From the sequence record MW598459: 64,000 bases of DNA; one strand, written 5' to 3'. Positions within the stretch are counted from its first letter, which is position 1. Every line of letters starts with the position of its first letter. Origin of the DNA: Escherichia phage vB_EcoM_RZ. The notes under the pieces were generated by a model, which saw only the letters and a list, made by a program, of their open reading frames with translations, had not been told where the DNA came from and did not search any database. Both the position numbers and the translations under genes were made by a program. Shown here one piece after another: positions 3-33,726 of the stretch.

Positions 3-941
<939 letters not shown>

Positions 942-970
942 AAGTAAAGCAAACTATTAGAGGACTCAAA

Positions 971-2950
971 ATGGCTTTATTATCTCCGGGCATTGAGCTC
1001 AAAGAAACAACGGTCCAAAGCACTGTTGTTCGTAACGCGACGGGTCGTGCGGCGCTGGTTGGTAAATTCCAGTGGGGCCCAGCTTTCCAGGTAACTCAGA
1101 TTACAAACGAAGTTGAACTTGTTGATTTGTTTGGTGGTCCGAATAATGAAACAGCAGATTACTTTATGAGTGGGATGAACTTCCTGCAATATGGTAATGA
1201 CCTCCGTACTGTACGTGTTGTTAACCGTGACGAAGCTAAAAACGCATCCCCGATTGCTGGCAATATTGAAACTACCATTGTAACTGCTGGTACAAACTAT
1301 GCTGTCGGTGATGTTATTCAGGTTAAACACAACCAGACTGTTGTTGAACCAGCTGGCCGTGTGACCAAGGTCGATGTTGATGGTAAAATTCTGGCAATCT
1401 TTATTCCTACCAATAAGATTATTGCATTTGCTAAAACTATTAATCAGTATCCTAATTTGGGCAGTGCATGGACTGCAGAAGTTACGACCACTTCTTCCGG
1501 TGTATCTGGTACCATCACTGTCGGGAAAATTGTTACCGATTCTGGCATTCTGTTGACTGAAGCAGAAAACAGTGAAGAAGCAATTACTTCTCTGGAATTC
1601 CAGGCATCATTGGCAAAATATGCAATGCCGGGTGTTGTTGCTCTTTATCCTGGTGAAATTGGTTCGACTCTTGAAGTTGAAATCGTATCCAAAGCTGAAT
1701 TTGAAAAAGGCGCAACTGCAAATCTGGATATTTTCCCCGGTGGTGGTTCCCGCGCTTCTATAGCTCGTGCAGTGTTTAACTATGGTCCTCAGACCGAAAA
1801 CCAATATGCAATTATCGTTCGCCGCGATGGTGCAATCGTCGAAAACGTTGTTTTGTCTACTAAGCAGGGCGAAAAAGATGTTTATGGTAATAACATTTAC
1901 CTGGATGACTACTTTGCAAAAGGTACTTCCAACTACATCTATGCAACATCTCGCAACTGGCCTGTAGGCTTCAGTGGTATCATCAATCTGTCTGGTGGTA
2001 TTTCTGCAAACGATAAGATTACCGCTGGTGATTTGATGCAAGGTTGGGACCTGTTCGCTGACCGTGAAGCTCTGCATATCAACCTGCTTATCGCTGGTGC
2101 TTGTGCTGGTGAAGGTGATGCGACCGCTTCCACTGTTCAGAAGCACGTAGTTTCTATTGCTGACGAACGTCAGGATTGCTTGGCATTCATTTCCCCGCCG
2201 AAAGGTCTGTTGGTTAACGTTCCTCTGACCCGTGCAGTGGATAACCTGATTGACTGGCGTACAGGTGCTGGTGCATTTGATACTGATAACATGAATATCA
2301 GCACGACTTATGCAGCGATTGATGGCAACTATAAATATCAGTATGATAAATATAACGACGTTAACCGTTGGGTTCCTCTGGCAGCTGATATGGCTGGACT
2401 GTGTGCTCGTACTGATGATGTTTCTCAGCCTTGGATGTCTCCGGCAGGTTATAATCGTGGTCAGATTCTGAACGTTCTGAAATTGGCTGTTGAACCACGT
2501 CAGACCCAACGTGACCGCATGTATCAGGAAGCTATCAACCCGGTTGTTGGTTTCGCAGGTGGTGATGGTTTTGTTCTGTATGGTGATAAGACTGCAACTA
2601 AAGTTCCATCTCCGATGGACCATATCAACGTTCGCCGTCTTACGAATATGCTGAAGAAAAATATCGGTGACGCATCCAAATATAAACTGTTTGAGCTTAA
2701 CGATAACTTCACTCGTGCATCATTCCGTATGGAAACTTCTCAATACTTGGATGGTATTCGTGCGCTCGGTGGCATTTATGAAGGTCGTGTGGTTTGTGAT
2801 ACTACTAACAACACCCCGGCGGTTATTGACCGAAATGAGTTTGTTGCTAGCATTTATTATAAACCTGCCCGCAGTATTAACTATATACAGCTTAATTTCG
2901 TTGCCACTAGCACTGGTGCTGATTTCGATGAGCTGATTGGGCCACAATAA
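971..2950 (+). CDS. 18: Tail sheath protein gp18
   Basis: 659 aa, same length as T4 gp18; N-terminus MALLSPGIELKETTVQS matches T4 gp18; position after gene 17. Confidence 0.95.
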   Translation: MALLSPGIELKETTVQSTVVRNATGRAALVGKFQWGPAFQVTQITNEVELVDLFGGPNNETADYFMSGMNFLQYGNDLRTVRVVNRDEAKNASPIAGNIETTIVTAGTNYAVGDVIQVKHNQTVVEPAGRVTKVDVDGKILAIFIPTNKIIAFAKTINQYPNLGSAWTAEVTTTSSGVSGTITVGKIVTDSGILLTEAENSEEAITSLEFQASLAKYAMPGVVALYPGEIGSTLEVEIVSKAEFEKGATANLDIFPGGGSRASIARAVFNYGPQTENQYAIIVRRDGAIVENVVLSTKQGEKDVYGNNIYLDDYFAKGTSNYIYATSRNWPVGFSGIINLSGGISANDKITAGDLMQGWDLFADREALHINLLIAGACAGEGDATASTVQKHVVSIADERQDCLAFISPPKGLLVNVPLTRAVDNLIDWRTGAGAFDTDNMNISTTYAAIDGNYKYQYDKYNDVNRWVPLAADMAGLCARTDDVSQPWMSPAGYNRGQILNVLKLAVEPRQTQRDRMYQEAINPVVGFAGGDGFVLYGDKTATKVPSPMDHINVRRLTNMLKKNIGDASKYKLFELNDNFTRASFRMETSQYLDGIRALGGIYEGRVVCDTTNNTPAVIDRNEFVASIYYKPARSINYIQLNFVATSTGADFDELIGPQ

Positions 2951-30815: not shown

Positions 30816-31102
30816 TAGAACCTCATCTGGAAACCGTGTGATTTAACATTACCGCCATTAATATCAGATGAATTAATTTCACGTGCTGCAATTGGGGCAA
30901 TATCAATGTCGCGTCTAAGCTTGGTGATTGCCAGAGTATCGCGTCCATTAACAGTCCGGAATTCTAGTGGGCAAACTACATCAACATAGTTCTTAATGGA
31001 ATCACGTGTTGGTTCACACCCAGCAGGAACATTAGGGCCTTTTTTAGAGAAAACAACTTCACAGAAATTTTTACGTGTATCAAAGTAAGTAGTCATAAAC
31101 AT
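30815..31102 (-). CDS. Hypothetical protein (95 aa)
   Basis: ORF with 1 nt stop/start overlap to the downstream gene. Confidence 0.5.
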   Translation of the reverse strand: MFMTTYFDTRKNFCEVVFSKKGPNVPAGCEPTRDSIKNYVDVVCPLEFRTVNGRDTLAITKLRRDIDIAPIAAREINSSDINGGNVKSHGFQMRF

Positions 31103-31140
31103 AGTATTTTACTCAAGGGGGCTTTCGCCCCCATTTAAGA

Positions 31141-31506
31141 TTAGATATCAAATTCATTAAGAACTACATCAAAGATTGCTTCCAGGTGTTCAGGTTTTGC
31201 TTTGTTGCTCAGGATATGACGAATCCAAGTTTTAACCAGAAGCTTGCGATTAACACCATTCCAGCAAGGATGAGTCCCTAAATCACGCTCACGGAAATCA
31301 TCATCTAATGCGATTTTGAATACCGAACCTTCCATCGTGATTGAAAGAGTGATACCATTTTCAAATCGCATATAAACGTAGTTAGGAGTCATATACTGTT
31401 CAATTTCACACACTGAACCGTTTTGATGTTTCCACAAGCAAATAACTTCAGAAGAACCTGGGATGCAGTTAGAAACATATTTGCGTTCAAAGTTGATGTA
31501 GTTCAT
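31141..31506 (-). CDS. Hypothetical protein (121 aa)
   Basis: ORF preceded by the conserved CTGGAGAATAAA-ATG leader. Confidence 0.5.
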   Translation of the reverse strand: MNYINFERKYVSNCIPGSSEVICLWKHQNGSVCEIEQYMTPNYVYMRFENGITLSITMEGSVFKIALDDDFRERDLGTHPCWNGVNRKLLVKTWIRHILSNKAKPEHLEAIFDVVLNEFDI

Positions 31507-31577
31507 TTTATTCTCCAGTTGTTTTCATTTGTTGGTACAGGTCTATAATATCATAACCTGTACCAAAGTAAACTGTT

Positions 31578-31946
31578 TTATGCGACTTTAATCCAATTAT
31601 CTAAATTTAATTCACCCTTAGCTTTCATTTTTTCAATCAGAAGGTCTGCAGTGGTGCGACCATTTTGATACCATGTAACATCTTCAGAATAACCAGTTTC
31701 TTCATCTTCATAGGTCTTACAACGAATCTTACCAATAATCAAAGTTTTCAGTTCGTAGGTATCACCAGTAAAAAAGTTTGTTACCATAATTTTCCAAGAG
31801 AAGTCATCAGAAGGACCTTCTGGAGTCATGCAACCTACAAATTCAAACTGCTCTTTATACAAGTGCCATTGCATCTCTTTAGTTTCGATTGCTTTGTAGC
31901 CGTCGTGGTCTTTACCTTTGATGTATGAGTTAAGATTGATTTTCAT
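31578..31946 (-). CDS. Hypothetical protein (122 aa)
   Basis: ORF preceded by the shared promoter-leader cassette. Confidence 0.5.
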   Translation of the reverse strand: MKINLNSYIKGKDHDGYKAIETKEMQWHLYKEQFEFVGCMTPEGPSDDFSWKIMVTNFFTGDTYELKTLIIGKIRCKTYEDEETGYSEDVTWYQNGRTTADLLIEKMKAKGELNLDNWIKVA

Positions 31947-31987
31947 TTTATGCTCCAGTGTTTTATTGTGTAACTCAGTATGAAATC

Positions 31988-32017
31988 ATTATGCACTGGA
32001 CCAACCCTGTTGTAAAC
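31988..32017 (-). promoter_or_regulatory. Early-type promoter (GTTTACA, 17 nt spacer, CATAAT) with conserved leader
   Basis: Near-identical to the cassettes at 10074-10103 and 48868-48897, including the CATACTGAGTTACACAA leader. Confidence 0.55.
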
Positions 32018-32029
32018 CCCTTTATGGAA

Positions 32030-32057
32030 AATAAAAAAGGGACTCCGAAGAGTCCCT
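32030..32057 (-). terminator. Intrinsic terminator (GGGACTC-CGAA-GAGTCCC plus T-run)
   Basis: 7 bp GC stem with tetraloop followed on the minus strand by TTTTTTATTTT; directly after the 53 aa gene. Confidence 0.7.
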
Positions 32058-32061
32058 GAAC

Positions 32062-32223
32062 TTATGCTTTCGGCTTACCAAAGCAAGCTGCATCGGCGCG
32101 CAATACCGCACGAGCACGAGCCTGAAGTTTATCAGTCACCTGATTGATTCGCTTGTTGGACGCACGCTTGTAACCAGCGCGTTTGGAGGAGCCATCAACA
32201 ACTTTAACTTCTTTCTTAGCCAT
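32062..32223 (-). CDS. Small highly basic protein (53 aa)
   Basis: Below the ORF-track cutoff; hand-translated MAKKEVKVVDGSSKRAGYKRASNKRINQVTDKLQARARAVLRADAACFGKPKA; flanked by a strong terminator. Confidence 0.5.
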   Translation of the reverse strand: MAKKEVKVVDGSSKRAGYKRASNKRINQVTDKLQARARAVLRADAACFGKPKA

Positions 32224-32621
32224 ATTAAATTCTCTTTAAAATAGAATGCAGGACTTATTGGCATTGCCTGCGCAAGCCCTCGAAGGGAACATTAGGTTTC
32301 GGATATTTAACGACAGGATAACCATAAACCTCGTCATCATACCTTATAGCTCTTATCTGTTGCACACCGTTAGCTTAAAGGTTCCGGGTTCGATTTCTCG
32401 AGGATAAGATATATACTGATGGATATATAGGCCTTGAGGCGTACTCCCGATTGGCCATCACCTCGGGGTAGCATGCACTTGCCGCTATAAGAATAACATT
32501 CAAGAGGTACACCGTAAAACTGCCGGGGTCTTAAAACTATAATGATTCGCAAATCATTAATCAGACGGTTCGACGGCTCCTCGATTTTCTAGCCGCACTA
32601 AGGTAGCGAATCACCTACAGC
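32224..32621. other. GC-rich ORF-free island (~400 bp), candidate structured non-coding RNA or decayed insertion
   Basis: No ORF of 60 aa or more with a credible start on either strand; a 100 nt stretch (32431-32530) counts 54% GC against an AT-rich genome; contains local hairpins (TAATGATT-CGCA-AATCATTA at 32539-32558; CCCT-CGA-AGGG near 32277-32287). Confidence 0.4.
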
Positions 32622-32876
32622 TTACTTCAGGGTTACGACAAAATGGCGAACAGCTTTACGGGCAGCAGATGCCAGCGGCTTAGCAAATTTCAGTTCATCT
32701 TTTGCTTCGAGCACTGCGCGAAGGTCGGTTTGAACCGGGTTAAGATGTTTGAAATACTGCAGAATTTCCAGTGCTTCGGCTTCAACATCAATAGATGCGC
32801 CGTAGTTTTCGTGACCGTTATTCCATGCAGTGCGTTGCAGTTCGAGAGCGTGTTGTAATTGTTTGTTTAAAGACAT
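32622..32876 (-). CDS. rIII: Putative rIII lysis-inhibition accessory protein
   Basis: 84 aa from the ATG at 32876 with GAGG ribosome-binding site; position immediately downstream of gene 31 as in T4; the TTG start at 32945 in the ORF track is less likely. Confidence 0.6.
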   Translation of the reverse strand: MSLNKQLQHALELQRTAWNNGHENYGASIDVEAEALEILQYFKHLNPVQTDLRAVLEAKDELKFAKPLASAARKAVRHFVVTLK

Positions 32877-33030
32877 TTTAGAAGCCTCAATATGAAGTGA
32901 ATATTTGGTGGACACGTTCTTCTGAATTTCACTTCCTTTCGGCAAGTCTCTCAGTTGTAGTCCACCGTTTAGGATTGGCTAACCCCATACACCAGCAAAG
33001 CTCTGTATGACATCAACCAATCCATATTAT

Positions 33031-33038
33031 TATTTATA
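33031..33038 (-). promoter_or_regulatory. T4-type late promoter TATAAATA upstream of rIII
   Basis: Exact TATAAATA on the minus strand between gene 31 and rIII. Confidence 0.45.
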
Positions 33039-33047
33039 ACGCTAATT

Positions 33048-33395
33048 TTACTTATAAAGACAAGGAACAGCTTTATAATGACAAGTCACAAATTTCTGCT
33101 TAACTTCTTTAGCCTGCTTAAGTCCCAGTGCAACCAGAGGATGTGGAACGTTTGCAATCTTGCCAACCGGAAGAGGAGTCAAATCACCTACTTCGCAGAA
33201 TCCTTCAGGAACATCCGGACCAACCGAAAATACTTCACACATCTCCGGGATTTCACCCTGATGGAGTTTTCCGATAACGATACCTGATGCCGTAGTTTCT
33301 TCATCACCAGCTTGCTTTGGCTCAGAAACCAAAATAATATATTCACCTACTGCTTTAATTGGTAATTCCATATTTAATCCATGTTGTTTGGTCAT
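33048..33395 (-). CDS. 31: Co-chaperonin gp31 (GroES-like)
   Basis: 115 aa; near-identical to T4 gp31 (LPI.AVGEY.ILVSEP.QAGDEE.T.SG...[20 protein letters not shown]...[30 protein letters not shown]). Confidence 0.92.
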
Positions 33396-33426
33396 GTATT
33401 AATAATAGCATGCATTGTTTGAAGCA

Positions 33427-33726
33427 TTAAAGGACGAGCAGAGTCTCGGTCTGCAGTCCATTCACGGAAATCAATTTATTGAAACAGAATGAACGCCATT
33501 CATTAAGCTTGGTATCAAATACCCGGATATAGCTAACTGGTTCTTTATTGGCTTCTGGTCCAGGGGCCTGGATTTCTTTATACGGTAGCAGGTCCAGGTC
33601 GCGAGTACAAGTCATACGACGGATGCTACCATCTGCTTTTTCAAACAGAACTTCGTGAAAACCAACAGACAAAATAGTCTTGACTTTTTCACGGAGACGA
33701 ATTGTTTCTTGTTCAGTTAAAATCAT
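33427..33726 (-). CDS. Hypothetical protein (99 aa), 31.1 position
   Basis: ORF between cd and gene 31. Confidence 0.5.
   Translation of the reverse strand: MILTEQETIRLREKVKTILSVGFHEVLFEKADGSIRRMTCTRDLDLLPYKEIQAPGPEANKEPVSYIRVFDTKLNEWRSFCFNKLISVNGLQTETLLVL

Follow-up and report, generated by a model that had tools for sequence, protein, structure and literature searches.

Within the 64,000 nucleotides of Escherichia phage vB_EcoM_RZ analysed here (record MW598459; the whole stretch is called the window), a small open reading frame (ORF) on the minus strand, at 32062..32223 including the stop codon, is by its sequence the orthologue of gene 30.9 of phage T4, kept under purifying selection and preceded by an untranslated island of structured RNA modules that are shuffled from phage to phage. 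The reading preferred here, to which as a whole a probability of about 0.5 is given, is that 30.9 is the last cistron of an rIII-30.9 unit, that it is preceded by a modular RNA leader and that its product, gp30.9, binds RNA; the part of this reading that concerns a real gp30.9 gene with a structured RNA leader is very probable. The ORF itself adds nothing new, 30.9 being a real gene but already catalogued and left without an assigned function for decades; the initial annotation of this region, made from the sequence alone, is correct but ordinary, and the added value lies in what it missed: the island is assembled as a mosaic from structured RNA modules, and some of these are also present apart from 30.9.

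Gene 30.9 and its conservation

The ORF list confirms the ATG start and the product of 53 amino acids (aa), MAKKEVKVVDGSSKRAGYKRASNKRINQVTDKLQARARAVLRADAACFGKPKA, whose richness in Lys, Arg and Ala is borne out by counting: 9 K, 6 R and 10 A are accompanied by 3 D and 1 E, corresponding to 15 basic vs 4 acidic residues and to a net charge of about +11. Upstream of the gene the sequence is AAAGAGAAUUUAAU-AUG; the A/G-rich ribosome-binding region described initially is present, but its Shine-Dalgarno sequence, located about 9 nt from the AUG, is of the weak GAG/AGAG type.

The window belongs to a T4-type phage of the VR7/SP18 group (Gaprivervirus) and is 99.5% identical to Escherichia phage pEC-M719-6WT.2 over the stretch studied. 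The gene order rIII, 30.9, 30.8 on one strand is common to the window and to the annotations of T4, VR7 and SP18, in which the locus is downstream of gene 31 and cd and 30.9 is placed between rIII and 30.8; these three records name the ORF gene 30.9, "conserved hypothetical protein". Therefore, the term "unannotated" was true for the gene track on which the initial annotation was based but not for public records. The comparison with T4 proteins of the 30.9/rIII position that had been proposed revealed a real gene for a basic protein, T4 gp30.9 (NP_049823), which is 65% identical to the window protein (E about 3e-17), while the proteins of VR7, VR25 and SP18 are 100% identical to it; the profile phrog_1427, to which T4 gp30.9 belongs, matches residues 1-53 of the window protein with E=2.9e-26. 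The two proteins share family, gene position, strand, terminator and the invariant core SKRAGYKR-x-SN; they differ in length, T4 gp30.9 having 58 aa and the window protein a shorter Lys-rich N-terminus, and in the C-terminal half, which is of the "...LQARARAVLRADAACFGKPKA" type in the window, VR7, SP18 and PEi20 and "...IMRRARAVLRDDASRFGKQKA" in T4. A study by Driukas and Nivinskas of 2003 reportedly had as its subject the expression of rIII and 30.9 in vivo.

By tblastn, 30.9 is present in 997 phage records, and the frame, the loss of which in related phages had been indicated as the sign of a spurious ORF, is kept in these approximately 1000 records. In comparison with ten relatives, the ratio between the proportions of nonsynonymous and synonymous differences (pN/pS) is 0.25-0.43, with pS up to 0.7, and all length differences are in-frame. 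A chance open frame could be suspected from the shortness of the ORF and from one T4 proteome study in which gp30.9 is unclassified and the 30.9 RNA is classed early (PMC9697503, supplement 4). A length of 53 aa alone could in fact be due to chance, but the kept frame, the in-frame indels and the pN/pS well below 1 indicate more than chance; moreover, the Shine-Dalgarno sequence, the start codon and the terminator are all conserved, and small basic proteins yield few tryptic peptides. The conservation of the frame refutes this explanation, whose probability is negligible.

The intrinsic terminator (32028..32057, minus strand) starts four bases 3' of the 30.9 stop codon with the stem-loop AGGGACUC-UUCG-GAGUCCCU (32057..32038), followed by UUUUUUAUUUU. 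The stem of 8 bp with 5 G-C pairs, the UUCG loop and the subsequent TTTTTTATTTT are those of an intrinsic terminator, and the strong terminator claimed directly downstream of the ORF is thus confirmed together with its T-run; it is the only terminator-like site found by consensus scan in 31000..33500. T4 has a terminator at the same place with a different stem and the same loop (GGACUCC-UUCG-GGAGUCC), and a terminator is annotated after 30.9 in two public records, NBG1 and fPS-90.

A probable rIII-30.9 transcription unit

All genes of the locus are on the minus strand. The cistron upstream of 30.9 is rIII (32622..32876, minus strand), encoding the lysis-inhibition accessory protein and recognized by tblastn and public annotation. 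Between the rIII stop (32622) and the 30.9 start (32223) the consensus scan did not reveal promoter-like or terminator-like sites and, in particular, no sigma-70-like site was found on the minus strand of 32224..32621; by eye, no late promoter TATAAATA was seen between the two genes and, among elements of the T4 middle/MotA-box type, only a poor GGCTTG devoid of a usable -10 element. In T4, rIII is reported to have early, middle and late promoters (PMC9409239). Since no site separates the two genes and rIII has its own promoters in T4, 30.9 can be read as the distal, and last, cistron of an rIII-30.9 unit, presumably co-transcribed from the rIII promoters.

This bears on the initial suggestion that the island is the long 5' leader of 30.9 and that the transcript starts within it. 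The first part stands, the island being untranslated, on the same strand and 5' of 30.9, with no promoter-like or terminator-like site, with indels that are not triplets and with one module, C1, always upstream of the gene; the second part finds no promoter-like site in the consensus scan, and 30.9 is apparently read through from rIII.

A non-coding and constrained island

The rIII-30.9 gap is 398 nt long (32224..32621). Its description as a GC-rich island holds only in a mild form, the GC content being 0.42-0.48 vs about 0.35 nearby. The corresponding gap of T4 is 244 nt long and nearly the same in sequence as the two ends of the window gap. Between window and T4, module A2 is 98% identical and the segment from C1 through to the ATG 96% identical, while identity is 85% in the rIII coding sequence and 79% in the 30.9 coding sequence; pS is 0.6 in coding sequence, yet the leader is 96-98% identical. 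The T4 group is among the best-studied phages, yet an untranslated stretch of 114-416 nt is more conserved here than the flanking genes.

Overall, 47 distinct gaps were tabulated across loci, the first 28 of which were aligned; their lengths range from 114 to 416 nt and they resolve into recurring modules. The shortest gap, of 114 nt, retains the hairpin H, the pseudoknot C1, a further hairpin and the Shine-Dalgarno hairpin. Folding of single sequences, with z = -0.1 in the window and -2.1 in T4, is not informative. The sense strand pairs better than the antisense in 4/4 alignments (B, C1, A2 and D), owing to 102 G.U cells in total, which indicates that the folded molecule is the minus-strand RNA.

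Small proteins encoded in the island were considered and rejected, since the indels that distinguish the window, T4 and other phages from each other have lengths not divisible by three, and the AUGAUG frame varies in length and phase. In particular, UAUGAUG at 32336..32342 (minus strand), immediately 5' of the C1 stem S1, is conserved in most phages and opens a frame of 10 to 34 codons, or one fused with 30.9 in T4, so that a conserved peptide is improbable. Public "hypothetical protein" coding sequences overlie the modules (in the window 32236..32340 and 32370..32552, minus strand; in locus L001 1837-1941 and 1971-2153), and several records label the island "1,4-alpha-glucan branching enzyme"; the frames of these coding sequences are not conserved between phages and they look like annotation artefacts.

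Structure and covariation of the RNA modules

Module B (32347..32488, minus strand; nhmmer match at 32486..32348) is an RNA of about 140 nt with a four-way junction and a GNRA hairpin, supported by RNAalifold, shuffles and held-out sequences. RNAalifold assigns to it 43 pairs, 16 of which are compensatory, and the closing stem P1 covaries; 98% of the cells are paired, and the covariation of 0.266 is reached by 0/500 shuffles and compares with at most 0.056 in slid controls. The GNRA hairpin is UCGA-GAAA-UCGA in some phages and CUGA-GUAA-UCAG in others, while long single-stranded runs are present whose unpaired nucleotides are invariant across genera. When held-out sequences were placed on the structure, Erwinia phage Cronus formed 39/43 pairs with 8 double changes and Yersinia phage JC221 formed 30/41 pairs with 7 double changes, against 10-22 pairs in slid controls.

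C1 (32295..32335, minus strand; profile envelope 32341..32290), identified by nhmmer and pair counts, is an H-type pseudoknot. The stem S1 is GAC-G-AGG/CCU-GUC (32335..32329 with 32317..32312), and in S2, GGUU/AACC (32323..32320 with 32298..32295), bases of the hairpin loop are paired to a segment about 13 nt onward; a conserved A-rich loop, GUUAAAUAUCCGA, is located between the S1 and S2 strands. Across phages S2 occurs as GGUU/AACC, UGGUU/AACCA, AGGUU/AACCU, CAAGGUU/AACCUUG, GUAGUU/AACUAC, UUGUGAG/CUCACAA and UUAGUAGUU/AACUACUAA. In the alignment of 33 sequences 83.9% of the cells are paired and the covariation is 0.372, vs 0.163 +/- 0.014 in shuffles (0/500) and at most 0.137 in slid controls; the register of this alignment was set by hand, with N padding so that MAFFT kept it, and it is therefore biased in favour of the structure. 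Stronger support comes from the slid controls and from long, unrelated and perfectly complementary S2 sequences.

In T2-type phages the second helix of C1 (window 32295..32323) contains UAUGG/CCUAAG, the canonical 11-nt GAAA-tetraloop receptor, which may be due to chance; at this site the window has CCUAAU and T4 has CCUAUG, and GAAA and GUAA loops occur in B and D.

Module A2 (32499..32586, minus strand) is a long irregular hairpin, supported by RNAalifold and by its identity to T4, with 25 pairs, 7 of which are compensatory even among close relatives, and with an invariant GGAG. Module D (32906..32967, minus strand; nhmmer and RNAalifold) is a three-tier hairpin with a GAAA loop located in the rIII leader, having 17 pairs, 8 of them compensatory; its internal loops, CUACAAC / GAAGAACGUG, are conserved. 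Altogether, the RNA structures are real and on the sense strand, co-linear with 30.9 and strongly constrained in sequence.

The remaining elements are short and were recognized only by eye. A1 (32589..32618, minus strand; alignments) is a conserved element, GGUGAUUCGCUACCUUAGUGCGG, just 3' of the rIII stop, which in other phages also follows C1 or B. H (32277..32287, minus strand; alignment and motif table) is the hairpin CCCUUCGAGGG followed by CUUG and is present in nearly all gaps, while E (32248..32271, minus strand) is a hairpin GCAGG...CCUGC, at the position of which other genera have another hairpin or module D. Finally, the Shine-Dalgarno hairpin (32229..32247, minus strand), read from the sequences, is AUUCU/AGAAU and pairs the Shine-Dalgarno-like GAG; it corresponds to AUUUUC/GAGAAU in T4 and to UCCA/UGGA in other genera.

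Distribution and exchange of the modules

C1 is matched by nhmmer exactly once in every sequence set (70 in all, made up of 69 loci and the window), has one copy in the whole 64-kb window and is located between rIII and 30.9 in every delimited gap; it is tied one-to-one to 30.9 across the enterobacterial T4-type genera examined. D also gives one nhmmer match per locus; phages of the T4, RB69 and Gaprivervirus types have it before rIII, whereas in those of the Klebsiella, Enterobacter and Serratia types it precedes 30.9. By nhmmer, no second copy of B, C1 or D is found in the 64-kb window. The order of the modules is A1-A2-B-C1-H-E in the window, C1-A1-B-H-D in the Klebsiella type and B-C1-H-D in the PG7 type. 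The slot of B can contain B, another cassette of about 50 nt (VR7, T2, RB69) or nothing (T4); B is in fact absent from T4 and VR7.

A stretch of 165 nt spanning B (window 32347..32488 region) is identical in the window, in SP18 (L003) and in Tequatrovirus MLP2 (L024), phages whose rIII proteins differ by about 11%, and the B of E. coli phages has an identity of 94-95% with that of Klebsiella/Edwardsiella phages, where gp30.9 is only 70-83% identical. These identities point to a recent exchange of cassettes between genera. A host origin of B was considered and rejected, since blastn against 5,426 E. coli genomes and a pattern search of 185,579 bacterial and archaeal genomes were both negative; the B pattern was found only in T4-sized viral or metagenomic contigs, and there always between rIII and 30.9.

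Yersinia phage JC221 (L028, MN508817) has at 896..1634 an ORF-free region of about 740 nt, downstream of uvsY-linked genes (near uvsY/uvsW) and ending at a bidirectional terminator, in which a divergent B (1103-1239) is accompanied by an H-like hairpin and an A1-like element. The rIII and 30.9 of JC221 itself were not found in a 33-kb stretch of its genome. The region looks like a stand-alone non-coding RNA gene made of the same modules, and the record annotates over it, on the opposite strand, a coding sequence of 58 aa.

The gp30.9 protein

The gp30.9 family is small, with 16 clusters in a profile search of 1.8 billion representative proteins; in public phage records its holders are T4-type phages and the group of Salmonella phage 7-11, to which the BFVD database adds the gp30.9 of Aeromonas phage 31. 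All members share a core, G-x-SKRAGYKR-x-SNKR(I/V)(N/D), followed by a basic amphipathic helix; the window protein has the residues of the invariant alignment columns, both in the core (G-x-S-K-R-A-G-Y-K-R-x-S-N) and in the helix (R-A-R-A-V), and distant members retain R-x-GYKR...N-x-R. AlphaFold2 with the family alignment predicts a disordered N-terminus and two helices, 14-21 and 24-48, with a mean predicted local distance difference test score of 72. Nucleic-acid binding by gp30.9 is a prediction from its composition and from this helical model. No family of Pfam or NCBIfam matches the protein; a PDB sequence search gave only SlmA noise (E about 0.35), and Foldseek with the model found no match in PDB and, in BFVD, only the gp30.9 of Aeromonas phage 31 (E=0.2).

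Proposed function of the leader and alternative explanations

According to the preferred reading, the gap would act both as the leader of 30.9 and as the 3' untranslated region of rIII; its structures would set the level of 30.9 translation and the survival of both halves of the messenger RNA (mRNA), the Shine-Dalgarno region would sit in weak structure, and gp30.9 would be an RNA-binding protein possibly feeding back on the pseudoknot C1. An autogenous loop through C1 would be the most economical solution because T4 gp32 and E. coli S15 and S4 use the same logic; autoregulation of 30.9 specifically, which is suggested by this analogy, is nevertheless rather doubtful. Pseudoknot-based autogenous operators are present in the T4 gene 32 mRNA leader and in the E. 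coli rpsO (S15) and alpha-operon (S4) leaders. With these the 30.9 leader would share an H-type pseudoknot placed in the 5' untranslated region, a gene product that is small and of the nucleic-acid-binding type (as predicted for gp30.9) and a start region in weak structure. In contrast, no sequence relation exists, and the distance of C1 from the start codon varies from 70 to 300 nt and can include other modules; in particular, its 3' end is 71 nt from the AUG in the window, and its start is about 300 nt from the AUG in Klebsiella-type phages. From sequence comparison the leader is a candidate operator, with a conserved pseudoknot 5' of the gene but a variable distance to the start, and any regulatory effect of the leader would follow by analogy. 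RIII, the product of the upstream cistron, binds ribosomal protein S1 and blocks the activation of RegB (PMC9409239); the invariant GGAG of A2 is the motif targeted by RegB, and the leader may possibly be linked to the S1/RegB axis.

Several observations weigh against this reading. B occurs in JC221 in an ORF-free region near uvsY/uvsW, and it comes and goes with no change in the protein, the gp30.9 of VR7 and of the window being identical; in one distant relative, L073, the structured leader is missing and an early-type promoter immediately precedes 30.9. The spacing in Klebsiella-type phages, where B, H and D separate C1 from a start codon about 300 nt away, fits poorly with a simple translational operator, and the Shine-Dalgarno hairpin does not show covariation, with little variation within each type. 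The high identity of the leader could also partly reflect recent recombination, the 165-nt B stretch being identical in a Tequatrovirus and in the window, and no sequence match in Pfam, NCBIfam, PDB or the Foldseek searches of PDB and BFVD indicates RNA binding by gp30.9.

The main alternative, possible if somewhat unlikely, is that B above all, and also A2, are non-coding RNAs cut from the rIII-30.9 transcript and acting in trans, perhaps as decoys that engage an RNA-binding factor of the host or a defence system, their proximity to 30.9 being due to shared transcription. The covariation of P1 makes B a self-contained fold with unpaired nucleotides and loops invariant across genera; B is more conserved than gp30.9, is present or absent between near-identical phages in an order that varies with respect to C1, and is found in JC221 with A1-like and H-like elements away from any 30.9 detectable in the stretches examined, while the function of the neighbouring RIII indicates a locus already involved in RNA-protein interplay. 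This is countered by the location of every B, except that of JC221, between rIII and 30.9 on the sense strand, by the strictly single-copy C1, always 5' of 30.9, and by the lack of similarity of B to host sequences. It is also conceivable, although unlikely, that the RNAs of the spacer (B and C1) form a ribonucleoprotein with gp30.9, or serve as trans-acting decoys, and in this way interfere with translation or RNA decay in the host (S1/RegB axis) or counteract host defence; if true, the pattern of presence and absence of B would reflect an arms race. Stable intercistronic hairpins are a known means of differential mRNA decay, and the structures could be generic stabilisers or insulators of mRNA (3' of rIII, 5' of 30.9) or, like the promoter-stem-loop cassettes of T4-type genomes, recombination-prone cassettes devoid of a specific ligand, as the shuffling of the modules, the two locations of D and the interchangeable content of the B slot would suggest; however, invariant loops and junctions, a conserved A-rich loop within a pseudoknot and an identity of 96-98% next to a divergence of about 60% at synonymous sites are not required of generic stabilisers, and no promoter is associated with the modules, which makes this explanation improbable.

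Two further possibilities have very low probability. C1, the next hairpin and a U-rich tract could form a riboswitch-like sensor controlling 30.9, the topology being similar to that of small pseudoknot aptamers (a hairpin and an A-rich tail that pairs with the loop) and the next hairpin being followed in some phages by the terminator-like UUUUAUUAC; this is very improbable, considering that no riboswitch of Rfam matches an 861-nt query even at E<=10, that S2 is free in sequence and length (4-9 bp), unlike a ligand pocket, that the downstream gene is not metabolic and that the terminator-like feature is not universal. Even slighter is the probability that the island is a degenerate RNA of the transfer-messenger RNA (tmRNA) type and gp30.9 a ribosome-rescue factor like ArfA or the SmpB tail. 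Short words (8-10-mers) are in common with E. coli ssrA (GAUUUGCGAA, CAAGUGCAUGC), and in Salmonella phage 7-11 the 30.9 homologue is downstream of units similar to transfer RNA (tRNA), in a region that the tmRNA_permuted model of Rfam matches weakly (29.6 bits, E=5.7e-4) and that holds a tag-like frame ANDNAFRVAA*. However, local alignment of the gaps to ssrA (sequence not taken from a database) scores no better than shuffles, ARAGORN finds 0 tmRNA/tRNA in the window and only noise at a lowered threshold, and Rfam gives no tmRNA match in the queried stretch of the window; the RNA of 7-11 has no profile match to the T4-type modules, only short blastn matches judged to be chance; hhalign gives a probability of 0.1 against E. 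coli ArfA (sequence likewise not taken from a database), and no Pfam or NCBIfam family matches gp30.9. Both the tmRNA-like origin and the ArfA/SmpB-tail function are largely refuted by the ssrA alignment, ARAGORN, Rfam and hhalign.

Comparison with known RNA families

The modules were compared to Rfam release 15 (4227 models including riboswitches, ribozymes, tmRNA and phage motifs), with no match at E<=1 in 5 kb and, at E<=10 in 861 nt, only a chance match to a microRNA inside rIII. T4-type genomes reportedly contain promoter-early stem-loop (PeSL) cassettes, described by Arbiol et al. in 2010, which are similar to the modules as short non-coding cassettes shuffled and exchanged between genomes at intergenic sites; they differ in that the modules do not have promoter-like sequences, exceed them in size and complexity (four-way junction, pseudoknot) and are presumably part of an mRNA. 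The rnaC and rnaD of T4 (species 1 and 2 RNA of the tRNA cluster) are also structured phage RNAs, of about 120-140 nt and with no function assigned; a relation to them was rejected, the profiles of B, C1, D and A2 matching nothing in the T4 tRNA/rnaC/rnaD region. A published description of these RNAs was not found, in a search with thin coverage of subscription journals, so that an earlier description is possible. The modules may represent new families of a familiar class, that of structured phage and leader RNAs; no RNA family database lists the pseudoknot, the four-way junction or the GNRA hairpins, which are annotated in some records as spurious proteins. They offer entry points to the function of gp30.9, to post-transcriptional control in the rIII region and to possible phage non-coding RNAs exchanged between genera.

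Neighbouring and related loci

In Salmonella phage 7-11 (L090, HM997019) the distant 30.9 homologue (1444..1638) is preceded by a non-coding region of about 580 nt (866..1443) with two tRNA-like units. This region includes a stretch of 177 nt matched by 341 phage records, most of them with 71-79% identity; Ackermannviridae and phages of about 72 kb are among these.

Directly after the 30.9 terminator, the consensus scan found a promoter-like site, TTTACA-17-CATAAT (31988..32016, minus strand), with 10/12 positions matched. This site probably serves 30.8 and suggests a new early transcription unit starting with this gene.

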